From sequence record PV189403.1: a stretch of 59,532 bases of DNA; one strand, written 5' to 3'. The notes under the pieces were generated by a model, which ran no database searches, was not told the DNA's origin, and worked only from the letters and a program-made list of their open reading frames with translations. Below, piece by piece: positions 16,288 to 16,668 of this stretch. The number at the start of each line of letters is the position of its first letter. Position 1 is the first letter of the stretch. Position numbers and translations under genes: made by a program. Source of the DNA: Escherichia phage vB_EcoP_phi315.

Positions 16288-16472
16288 TTGCCCGTACAGG
16301 GCAAAAACCGTAAATTATGCGCGGGTGCCTTTCGGCTGATGGCTGGAGGGAGAACCTGAAGGCCTGATGTGGAAAGGCCCCGAGTCAACTTTAATGTTAA
16401 CCCGAGGCCCTAACACTTCGTACCTTAAGCAAGTAGAAGGTTAGCGCCTCTCTGTAAAAGGAGTCAAGCGCT

Positions 16473-16613
16473 ATGCCGCAAAAAACGATCATAGTCAGCA
16501 TTTTATGCATAACTATTTTGGTGATTGTCTGGATGATACACAACTCACACTGTGAGTTCAGGCTTAACATCATGTGGTCACAATTTGCGGCGTTCTTGCA
16601 GTGTAAACAGTAA
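16473..16613 (+). CDS. hok: Hok/Gef-family type I toxin-like small membrane peptide
   Basis: 46-aa ORF not in the track (below cutoff), with AAGGAG RBS: MPQKTIIVSILCITILVIVWMIHNSHCEFRLNIMWSQFAAFLQCKQ. Carries ICIT TM motif, CE-F-R and AAF motifs; 9-bp-stem GAAA hairpin at 16622-16643. Confidence 0.55.
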   Translation: MPQKTIIVSILCITILVIVWMIHNSHCEFRLNIMWSQFAAFLQCKQ

Positions 16614-16668
16614 GAAACCTCGACGGGGACGAAAGTCCCCGTCAACTGGTTGCTGAGGTTCAGCCGAT

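Follow-up and report, generated by a model that had tools for sequence, protein, structure and literature searches.

A probable mok-less hok/sok-type cassette downstream of lom in a 933W-type Stx phage and its relation to the 24B_1 RNA of phage Φ24B

What is encoded by the short open reading frame (ORF) that lies downstream of lom, between late-region genes of the same strand, in Escherichia phage vB_EcoP_phi315 (sequence record PV189403.1), and does the sequence around it form a functional unit with it? The window, as the whole stretch of 59,532 nucleotides (nt) analysed here is called in the following, is that of a 933W-type Shiga toxin (Stx) phage, and a first-pass annotation made from the letters alone had proposed a Hok/Gef-like type I toxin acting as an addiction or abortive-infection module. 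The analysis shows family membership of the toxin, conservation and covariation of a set of RNA elements, a strand asymmetry of an antisense hairpin and coincidence of the locus with the promoter, precursor and deletion of the RNA 24B_1 described in phage Φ24B. The region of approximately 16288-16679 is thus very probably a self-contained hok/sok-family type I toxin-antitoxin (TA) cassette and the second hok locus of 933W-type Stx phages, distinct from hokW-sokW.

Identity of the lom-adjacent locus with the published hokW-sokW of Sp5, a type I TA system aiding phage release (Takada et al. 2021, PMC8621323), was considered and rejected, as both the peptide and the position in 933W differ. The primers of that study encode a HokW peptide MKQQKAM...DYESEK of 51 amino acids (PMC8621323), and hokW, mokW and sokW have been annotated by Plunkett 1999 at 58460-58734, near the right end of 933W, with hokW labelled as 'prophage maintenance' (AF125520). 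As the two loci lie apart, 933W and Sp5 carry two hok loci, and the deletion of hokW-sokW in Sp5, the subject of the only functional study, delays arrest and halves the yield (PMC8621323) and left the lom-adjacent locus in place.

A catalogued toxin gene of the Hok family

The toxin gene and its ribosome-binding site are located as follows.

16473..16613, plus strand: coding sequence (CDS) of a hok-family toxin of 46 amino acids, MPQKTIIVSILCITILVIVWMIHNSHCEFRLNIMWSQFAAFLQCKQ, with ATG start, as judged from the ORF list, profile matches and the ratio of nonsynonymous to synonymous substitutions (dN/dS)
16459-16464, plus strand: Shine-Dalgarno (SD) sequence AAGGAG of hok, 8 nt before the ATG, with GGAG invariant in the alignment

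The peptide is identical to the one in the first-pass annotation, and the AAGGAG ribosome-binding site named there was recovered as well. Profile searches assign the peptide to the Hok family: Pfam HOK_GEF (PF01848) is matched with 24.9 bits (gathering score 22, E 1.6e-5), with residues 9-44 aligned to profile positions 7-42 of 42, and PHROG 251, 'MokW-like host killing', with an E-value of 6.3e-20. The best NCBIfam model is HokA (NF007290), but its 37.9 bits stay far under the equivalog cutoff of 89; identity as HokA is therefore rejected and the peptide is HokA-like only, sharing the MPQK... start and the ...AAFLxCK end with HokA of E. coli. A homologue search with the 46-residue peptide retrieved only close E. 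coli relatives, all of them named Hok/Gef. A hydrophobic run extends from residue 5 to 22. Among the Hok/Gef hallmarks that had been listed for the peptide, the motif given as ICIT reads LCIT.

The locus was compared in 18 distinct cassette copies from phages, plasmids and chromosomes. These copies occupy four contexts: Stx phages carry the cassette behind lom and P2-like prophages carry it at their end behind ogr, while the other two sites are an island that contains TraT and transposase remnants and a position between core genes near ytfP. ORF length is 45-46 codons in all 18, and pairwise dN/dS ranges from 0.12 to 0.65, with most values below 0.45. Residues M1, Q3, K4, C12, T14, W20, H23, S25, C27, E28, R30, the alanine pair at 38-39, L41, C43 and K44 are invariant. 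The published sequence logo of Hok peptides shows M1, C16, T18, L30, C31, E32 and E41 kept in over 80% of them (10.1101/2025.08.07.668861). Four of these logo residues are found here as C12, T14, C27 and E28, invariant among 11 distinct subfamily peptides, while two of the seven are not kept: this allele has H26 and Q36 at the logo positions L30 and E41, where other alleles have L and E.

The exact peptide is also present as entry 1301 in the supplements of a recent Hok catalogue (Escalera-Maurer et al., 2026, bioRxiv 10.1101/2025.08.07.668861), where it groups with 82_1289; clusters '72' and '82' comprise the 46-residue Hoks. Three members of this group, 72_1589, 72_1621 and 82_1289, have been cloned and found toxic, as were 42 of 45 constructs overall, and the three non-toxic ones are unrelated to the 46-residue group (10.1101/2025.08.07.668861). 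The 933W/Φ24B allele corresponds to 72_1589, and 82_1289 is identical to the present allele in 30 of 45 residues. The catalogue covered coding sequences only, with Sok, Mok and mRNA structure explicitly left aside (10.1101/2025.08.07.668861). The ORF is hence a genuine Hok-family toxin gene which is already known and catalogued, and the toxin is not new; by analogy with the related alleles, this particular allele is probably toxic.

That the ORF is unannotated, as had been stated, holds for the records of 933W (AF125520), Stx2 phage 86 (AB255436) and Φ24B (HM208303), and in 933W no gene is annotated in the lom-L0129 spacer. It does not hold for newer phage records, which label the ORF 'MokW-like host killing', nor for RefSeq/PGAP, where it is labelled 'Hok/Gef family protein' and where about 946 of the 5426 complete genomes of E. 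coli contain a match.

Predicted sense and antisense RNA of the cassette

Around the toxin gene, the elements of a hok-type messenger RNA (mRNA) can be read from the sequence, the alignment and the predicted folds.

16288..16316, plus strand: putative hok promoter, with -35 box TTGCCC (16288-16293), 17-nt spacer and -10 box TAAATT (16311-16316), read from the sequence
16321..16340, plus strand: 5′ end of the hok mRNA with the tac-like box GCGGGUGCCUUUCGGCUGA, invariant in 18 of 18 copies; the transcript probably starts about 16323
16323-16484, plus strand: match to Rfam RF01794 ("sok") over the full model (1-157), 37.5 bits, E 3.4e-6
16369-16381, plus strand: box GAUGUGGAAAGGCCCC, containing a conserved ATG (16367), candidate ucb-like local partner of the 5′ end
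16404..16450, plus strand: predicted target stem-loop with loop CCUUAAGCA (16422-16430), from the trimmed fold and columns 86-132 of the consensus fold
16584..16593, plus strand: downstream box UUUGCGGCGU (FAAF codons), predicted to pair with the hok start at 16473-16482 (AUGCCGCAAA) and to sequester the AUG
16622..16643, plus strand: 3′ hairpin GACGGGGAC-GAAA-GTCCCCGTC (RNA 3′ arm GUCCCCGUC), a perfect 9-base-pair (bp) stem which follows the stop codon as in hokW
16660..16679, plus strand: fbi-like 3′ box UUCAGCCGAUAUGGCACCCG, which is complementary to the 5′ end and marks the 3′ limit of the conserved cassette

The putative sense promoter matches 8 of 12 consensus positions, and its boxes, TTGCC(C/G)/TTGCGG and TA(A/G/C)ATT, are kept in the four unrelated contexts despite differing surroundings; in hokW, a TAGAAT is found at the same distance from GCGGGTGC as this -10 box. 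The covariance-model search for hok/sok elements, proposed along with the first-pass annotation, gave the significant match to RF01794 on the sense strand listed above, although under the gathering score. Despite its name, RF01794 models the sense hok leader and not the antisense RNA, because its consensus starts with GGGUGCUUGAGGC and ends in AUG and because hokW, as a positive control, scores 113.5 bits on its sense strand.

The 5′ box GCGGGUGCCUUUCGGCUGA is complementary to UCAGCCGAUAUGGCACCCG (16661-16679), and a 5′-3′ duplex of -30 to -36 kcal/mol is retained in all contexts, although the 3′ side varies in detail; the core pairs are kept in 17-18 of the 18 copies. In the minimum free energy fold of the full-length mRNA (16323-16685), pairing of 16323-16339 with 16660-16677 is found de novo, whereas in the fold trimmed at the 3′ end (to 16646) the 5′ end is re-paired with 16369-16381, the box GAUGUGGAAAGGCCCC being invariant except for one base in two plasmid copies. 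The models thus predict a tac/fbi-type lock with an alternative local partner after 3′ trimming. These folds match the tac/fbi/ucb refolding of the R1 hok mRNA described by the Gerdes laboratory.

The AUG-sequestering helix of 10 bp is seen in both single-sequence folds as well as in the consensus, with 99.4% of the cells paired and eight of its ten pairs invariant. In the 3′ hairpin, 98.8% of the cells are paired and four of the nine pairs show compensatory changes on both sides. This hairpin had been described previously as perfect and as consistent with the structured 3′ end of hok mRNAs; its presence, conservation, covariation and corresponding position bear out both statements, and it is proposed here as the stop for 3′ processing. 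Taken together, the four named helices have 93.5% of the cells paired compared with 37-45% after displacement of the partners by 1-3 columns; the comparison favours the version without displacement, since one of the compared sequences had supplied the structure.

On the opposite strand, an antisense RNA had been expected within 16300-16472, and a candidate gene with a conserved promoter and a strand-specific hairpin could be placed there.

16370..16431, minus strand: Sok-like antisense RNA gene of about 60 nt, its 3′ end uncertain and possibly at ~16352, as judged from hairpin stability, conservation and the position of sokW
16438..16467, minus strand: antisense (sok-type) promoter, with -35 box TTGACT (16467->16462), 18-nt spacer and -10 box TAACCT (16443->16438); start predicted at about 16431/16430

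The predicted RNA consists of a single-stranded 5′ tail (16431-16412), a stem-loop (16411-16374) and a subsequent UUU, and its 5′ end is complementary to the loop CCUUAAGCA of the target stem-loop. The hairpin 16374-16411 has a perfect 15-bp stem and -25.6 kcal/mol on the minus strand compared with -12.9 on the plus strand; in each of the 18 copies the minus-strand form is the more stable one (mean -24.4 versus -13.4), and 95% of the cells form standard pairs on the minus strand versus 74% on the plus strand. At four positions of the hairpin, the antisense strand has G-U where the sense strand has A·C. The promoter pattern TTGNNN, 17-18-nt spacer and TA(A/C)(C/T)CT is kept in all 18 copies. 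The gene has the position of the annotated sokW in 933W, which has the same GGCTAACCT -10 box. Mutation of the sokW -10 box abolished antitoxin activity, which has thus been shown for the paralogue (PMC8621323). Cumulatively, the alignment and the computed folds point to a cis-encoded, leader-complementary antisense RNA with its own promoter, and by analogy with sokW this RNA would be expected to neutralise the toxin.

The mok-like leader that had also been expected in this interval was not recovered: no mok ORF overlaps hok.

16367..16444, plus strand: short leader ORF of 25 codons from the conserved ATG, not a canonical mok

This ORF stops 29 nt before the hok ATG. Among the 18 copies, the ORF from the conserved leader ATG comprises 1, 8, 15, 19, 24, 25, 60 or 61 codons and overlaps hok in only three, so that mok is rejected as a component of the cassette. 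As the ORF lengths vary so widely, the box with the ATG is conserved not as the start of a reading frame but as RNA, in its capacity as local partner of the 5′ end. Antisense control of hok without mok might proceed through decay triggered by the duplex or through a structural effect, which are the obvious candidates.

Coincidence with 24B_1 and mosaic structure of the cassette

According to a mini-review, the 'microRNA-size' RNA 24B_1 of Φ24B is "encoded in the lom-vb_24B_43 region". Its promoter p24B_1 has been published with the boxes TTGACT / CGCTAACCT and the 20-mer has been located at Φ24B 45711-45692 (2015, PMC4426718). The promoter boxes are identical to those of the antisense promoter in the window, and the 20-mer can be mapped by coordinates.

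16379..16399, minus strand: equivalent of the 20-nt 24B_1 RNA (UAACGUUAAGUUGACUCGGG in Φ24B; UAACAUUAAAGUUGACUCGGG here), loop and 3′ arm of the antisense hairpin

The equivalent in the window differs by one substitution and one inserted base. The Sok-like gene 16370..16431 on the minus strand is the homologue of the 80/81-nt '24B_1 precursor' of Φ24B; the antisense RNA therefore appears to be the published 24B_1 precursor. The leader in the window is 96.7% identical to that of 933W, the Φ24B leader is of the 933W type, and RF01794 matches the Φ24B spacer with an E-value of 3.9e-6. The Φ24B hok ORF is intact (the 933W allele, 72_1589) and starts 73 nt from the 20-mer.

The published Δ24B_1 deletion (Φ24B 45585-45772) corresponds to 16272-16461 of the window; half of the lom terminator is lost in it, as are the sense promoter, the entire leader, the antisense gene including its -10 box and three bases of the SD sequence of hok. 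The mutant forms fewer lysogens and shows faster induction and a larger yield (PMC4426718). As the deletion also removes the hok promoter and leader, these phenotypes need to be re-read in TA terms. A transcript of the antisense region has been detected after induction by reverse transcription PCR (RT-PCR), which is not a strand-specific mapping of strand and ends, and 2223 reads of the 20-mer have been reported (PMC4426718). The 81-nt precursor transcribed in vitro binds Hfq with a dissociation constant of 25 nM (2023, PMC10732415), which parallels the partial Hfq dependence of sokW; sokW RNA is present before addition of mitomycin C and gone afterwards (PMC8621323).

Hok is not named in the 2015 paper, and hok, sok and toxin-antitoxin are absent from the 2023 paper and the 2025 review; one paper covering both 24B_1 and hok treats them in separate sections. 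As far as the open literature could be searched, an equation of the 24B_1 precursor with a Sok-type RNA was not found.

The boundaries of the cassette are given by comparison of the contexts.

16263..16287, plus strand: intrinsic terminator of lom (stem 16263-16281 and T-run), from the terminator scan; upstream boundary of the cassette

Homology among copies in unrelated contexts starts just past the lom terminator and extends from the TTGCC(C/G) / TA(A/G/C)ATT pair (16288-16316) to just past the GGCACCC box (16672-16679). As the same boundaries recur in four unrelated contexts, the unit is about 390 bp in size and mobile. The terminator of the next gene is found at 17122-17141 by the same scan, and the earlier placement of the ORF between the terminators of lom and of the next gene is thus correct. 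The spacer downstream of lom comprises 431 bp and is 100% identical in Stx2-converting phage 86 and vB_EcoP_phi296 and 88.6% identical in 933W, VT2-Sakai (Sp5) and many other short-tailed Stx phages.

Identity is unevenly distributed within the cassette. Compared with 933W, the leader is 96.7% and the 3′ untranslated region (UTR) 95.5% identical, but the CDS only 67.4%; compared with the copy of pSTEC639 at the end of a P2-like prophage, the CDS is 97.2%, the leader 91% and the 3′UTR 77% identical. The swapped region is the CDS (16473-16613) as opposed to the flanks 16321-16472 and 16614-16682, with break points at the invariant boxes ATGYCGCAAAAA and TTTGCGGCGTTCTT, two sequences that pair with one another. 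The swap of the whole CDS kept the reading frame exactly. Judged from the alignment, the toxin allele appears to be exchanged as a unit.

These observations can be joined into one reading, which is put forward tentatively, as somewhat short of an even chance: 24B_1, published as the first functional bacterial RNA of microRNA size, would be a processing fragment and the 80-nt precursor the full-length Sok-type antitoxin of an unrecognised mok-less hok/sok module, the phenotypes of the deletion would arise from loss of promoter, leader and antitoxin, 933W-type phages would carry two modules of opposite effect on the lysis-lysogeny decision, and toxin alleles would be swapped as units between RNA boxes that do not vary.

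Some observations concern the neighbourhood and the database records. The downstream ORF 16669-17070 (plus strand) belongs to PHROG 610 of unknown function; as the profile matches only from residue 9, its true start is probably the ATG at 16693, and the upstream ATG at 16669 falls within the fbi-like box of the hok cassette. Inside this ORF lies a strong bidirectional terminator-like hairpin (16772-16803, ACGCCTGC...GCAGGCGT with T-run), at which the hok sense transcript could end in Stx phages; the terminator scan gives the next terminator-like site as 16777-16803. Other Rfam matches of the window at the gathering score, located at 52726-52931, 52373-52619, 48429-48624, 39208-39266 (minus strand) and 33435-33524 (minus strand), are typical of a 933W-type Stx phage; they comprise STnc100, three transfer RNAs, isrK together with C4 antisense RNA and the a1b1 target of the latter, the thermoregulator of lambda cIII, and sRNA-Xcc1. 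A contig scan with the 16-mer GATGTGGAAAGGCCCC gave 120 loci, nearly all chance matches and only two of them real (L024 and L051). The former, an 857-bp contig labelled Xanthomonas pisi DSM 18956 (NZ_JPLE01000227.1), contains a G5295-like hok cassette of the E. coli Stx-phage type and most likely represents contamination of that assembly. Three PLSDB records of 1.0-1.4 Mb labelled as plasmids (CP061233.1, CP061270.1, CP061244.1) contain P2-like prophage ends with the hok cassette; as these records look like chromosome fragments, plasmid counts for the cassette are inflated.

Possible role of the cassette and comparison with known systems

How might the cassette work? A weak sigma-70 promoter (TTGCCC/TAAATT) would direct a sense mRNA starting near 16323. 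In the full-length mRNA, pairing of the 5′ box with the 3′ box 16660-16679 and retention of the AUG by the FAAF codons would render the molecule translationally inert. Trimming of the 3′ end back to the hairpin 16622-16643 would allow the 5′ end to re-pair with 16369-16381, and the stem-loop 16404-16450 would then present CCUUAAGCA. A constitutive antisense RNA of ~60-80 nt (TTGACT/TAACCT, minus strand) would pair with loop and leader, whereupon expression would be blocked and the duplex cleaved. Upon depletion of the antisense RNA, the 46-residue peptide would be made and inserted into the inner membrane, and membrane integrity would collapse. From the elements described, we infer the transcript ends, the refolding pathway, the cleavage by RNase III and the biological role.

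Several points speak against this reading of the locus. The evidence for toxicity concerns related alleles and not this one, and chromosomal hok loci of K-12 are reported as inactive, with no killing mediated. The transcript ends are predictions for sense and antisense RNA alike, and in a consensus promoter scan of 16150-17200 no sites were found, as neither the sense nor the antisense promoter reaches the threshold; this negative is not counted as absence of promoters, because the same scan also finds nothing in the validated hokW locus. The 37.5 bits for RF01794 lie below the gathering score of 59, the match being seen in E-value mode, and at gathering thresholds no hok/sok match is obtained in the whole window. 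All copies of the 46-residue subfamily (including L007, L013, L137 and L147) score 37-43 bits, and routine Rfam annotation therefore misses the whole subfamily.

The energy of the 5′-3′ duplex (-36.2 kcal/mol, z = -3.8 versus shuffles, rank 2nd of 2160 non-self window tiles) is in itself moderately unusual, as three non-self tiles, including this one, reach -36 or better, and the two boxes are nearly invariant, so that the pairing is judged from conservation and wobble with one truly compensatory pair; the main basis of the claim is that the pairing is retained in the different contexts and recurs in the de novo folds. The Stx-phage copies are without a terminator of their own, whereas the P2-type and chromosomal copies have one ~25 nt past the 3′ box (L013 1901-1928, L012 1900-1915). 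No ATG, GTG, TTG, CTG or ATH start exists in either alternative frame across the hok start, and as no mok overlaps hok, the canonical control of hok by Sok via mok cannot apply; the antisense target, moreover, ends 28 nt upstream of the hok SD sequence. In Φ24B, the RT-PCR product of the antisense region was seen only after induction and was absent in the uninduced lysogen (PMC4426718), a behaviour not expected of a constitutive antitoxin. Finally, a 189-nt clone in pUC18 without the hok ORF complements Δ24B_1 in trans and lowers ATP (PMC4426718, PMC10732415), and at least part of the published phenotype is therefore mediated by RNA and not by Hok.

With respect to its role, the cassette could mainly serve prophage addiction by post-segregational killing, or abortive infection, instead of tuning the lysis-lysogeny decision. 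For R1, hok/sok is cited to give plasmid maintenance and partial exclusion of T4 (cited in PMC8621323), hok genes are about four-fold enriched in prophages and hokW of 933W carries its maintenance label. On the other hand, PADLOC gave no match for the peptide or the downstream ORF, hok is not enriched near defence systems (10.1101/2025.08.07.668861), and the experiments on the segment and its paralogue concern only lysogenisation frequency, induction timing and progeny yield. Deletion of the leader/sok segment in Φ24B alters lysogenisation, induction timing and burst size (PMC4426718, PMC10732415), and the results published for this segment and for the paralogue together point to modulated lysogenisation, induction timing and progeny release, not to addiction or abortive infection (PMC4426718, PMC10732415, PMC8621323). 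A main role in addiction or abortive infection, as the first-pass annotation had it, is accordingly considered rather doubtful.

The hok locus could also be decaying and translationally silent, with selection acting on the RNA, the antisense small RNA/24B_1 and perhaps the leader, which would act in trans on phage or host targets. The missing mok overlap in the window and in all but three of the 18 copies, sequestration of the hok AUG in both predicted conformers, the K-12 loci reported without killing, and the hok-less 189-nt fragment, which complements in trans and alone lowers ATP, are all consistent with such a state, and decay of hok does occur in this genome, as a dead hokW remnant is present.

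28321-28437, minus strand: dead hokW-type remnant, adjoining int (28793-30127, minus strand)

In this remnant, residues 2 to ~30 are kept with ~90% identity to 933W hokW, but two 1-nt indels are present, a ~76-nt deletion removes the C-terminal half, and leader, promoter and sok region are missing. The lom-adjacent ORF, however, is intact with 45-46 codons in 18 of 18 copies across phages, plasmids and chromosomes, its dN/dS is well below 1, C12, T14, C27, E28 and the AAF motif are conserved, the SD sequence AAGGAG is kept, the allele swap preserved the frame, and subfamily alleles are toxic when expressed, including the mok-less 72_1589 and 82_1289. A silent locus is therefore regarded as unlikely.

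A spurious ORF within a purely non-coding small RNA locus, 24B_1 as published, with a coincidental likeness to Hok, would fit the interpretation of the region without a coding gene in the 24B_1 papers, the shortness of the peptide and a conservation that partly derives from RNA structure, with the AUG region pairing with the FAAF codons, but it is extremely improbable and effectively already refuted by the profile matches (Pfam, PHROG, NCBIfam) and the selection pattern of synonymous versus nonsynonymous change at fixed ORF length, with the full set of hok-type RNA elements in the order of the validated hokW and the toxic subfamily alleles speaking against it as well.

For the preferred reading as a hok/sok-family cassette, the toxin gene is ordinary and the locus is less novel than the first-pass annotation assumed; the added value lies in a second hok/sok module in Stx phages and in a 24B_1 literature that has dealt with the antisense RNA of this module by a different name. 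Work over ten years on the 'microRNA' 24B_1 of Φ24B would hence concern the antisense RNA of the lom-adjacent hok locus. Since mok is the only hok RNA element missing from the 46-residue subfamily, this subfamily lends itself naturally to testing Sok control without translational coupling. Through their effect on the lysogenisation and induction of Shiga-toxin phages, the modules are also relevant to Stx production.

Compared with 24B_1 as published, the locus shares the spacer between lom and the next gene, the promoter boxes, the minus-strand hairpin and the type of leader. In contrast, 24B_1 has been described as a stand-alone, trans-acting microRNA-like gene targeting d_ant, the upstream region of S and sdhB, with neither the hok ORF nearby nor an antisense control being mentioned, and the Φ24B toxin allele is of the 933W type (72_1589), unlike the allele in the window.

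With hokW-mokW-sokW of 933W/Sp5, the lom-adjacent cassette shares the phage type and the element order: a 5′ GCGGGUGC box, an antisense gene with GGCTAACCT as -10 box, the SD sequence AAGGAG, a Hok of ~50 amino acids, a hairpin right after the stop codon (GCGGGGGAG-UAAU-CUCCCGC in hokW) and complementary ends (5′ GCGGGUGC, 3′ GCACCCGC with the GCACCC box). On the present reading, both are type I TA systems with an Hfq-binding or Hfq-dependent antisense RNA. However, hokW is located downstream of the gene for a 1658-residue virion protein near int and not downstream of lom, encodes a 51-residue peptide, has a leader with 113.5 instead of 37.5 bits for RF01794 and is accompanied by an annotated mokW, which has no counterpart here. 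The effects of the deletions are opposite in sign, with slower arrest and half the progeny for ΔhokW-sokW but faster induction and more progeny for Δ24B_1.

The paradigm hok/mok/sok of plasmid R1, as described in PMC8621323, PMC5488031 and 10.1101/2025.08.07.668861, resembles the present locus in its peptide of the Hok family and its long structured leader and, as far as predicted here from the folds, in a target stem-loop to which a short antisense RNA with a terminal stem-loop binds by its 5′ tail. An alternative local partner of the 5′ end and a 5′-3′ lock freed by 3′ trimming to a stable hairpin are features of the R1 locus that the folds predict here as well. The R1 system differs in that the present locus is without an overlapping mok, encodes a peptide of 46 instead of 52 amino acids, is without a dedicated terminator past the 3′ box in the Stx-phage copies and is too diverged in sequence for the Rfam gathering score. 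In regulatory anatomy, the present locus corresponds to a hok/sok module that lacks mok.

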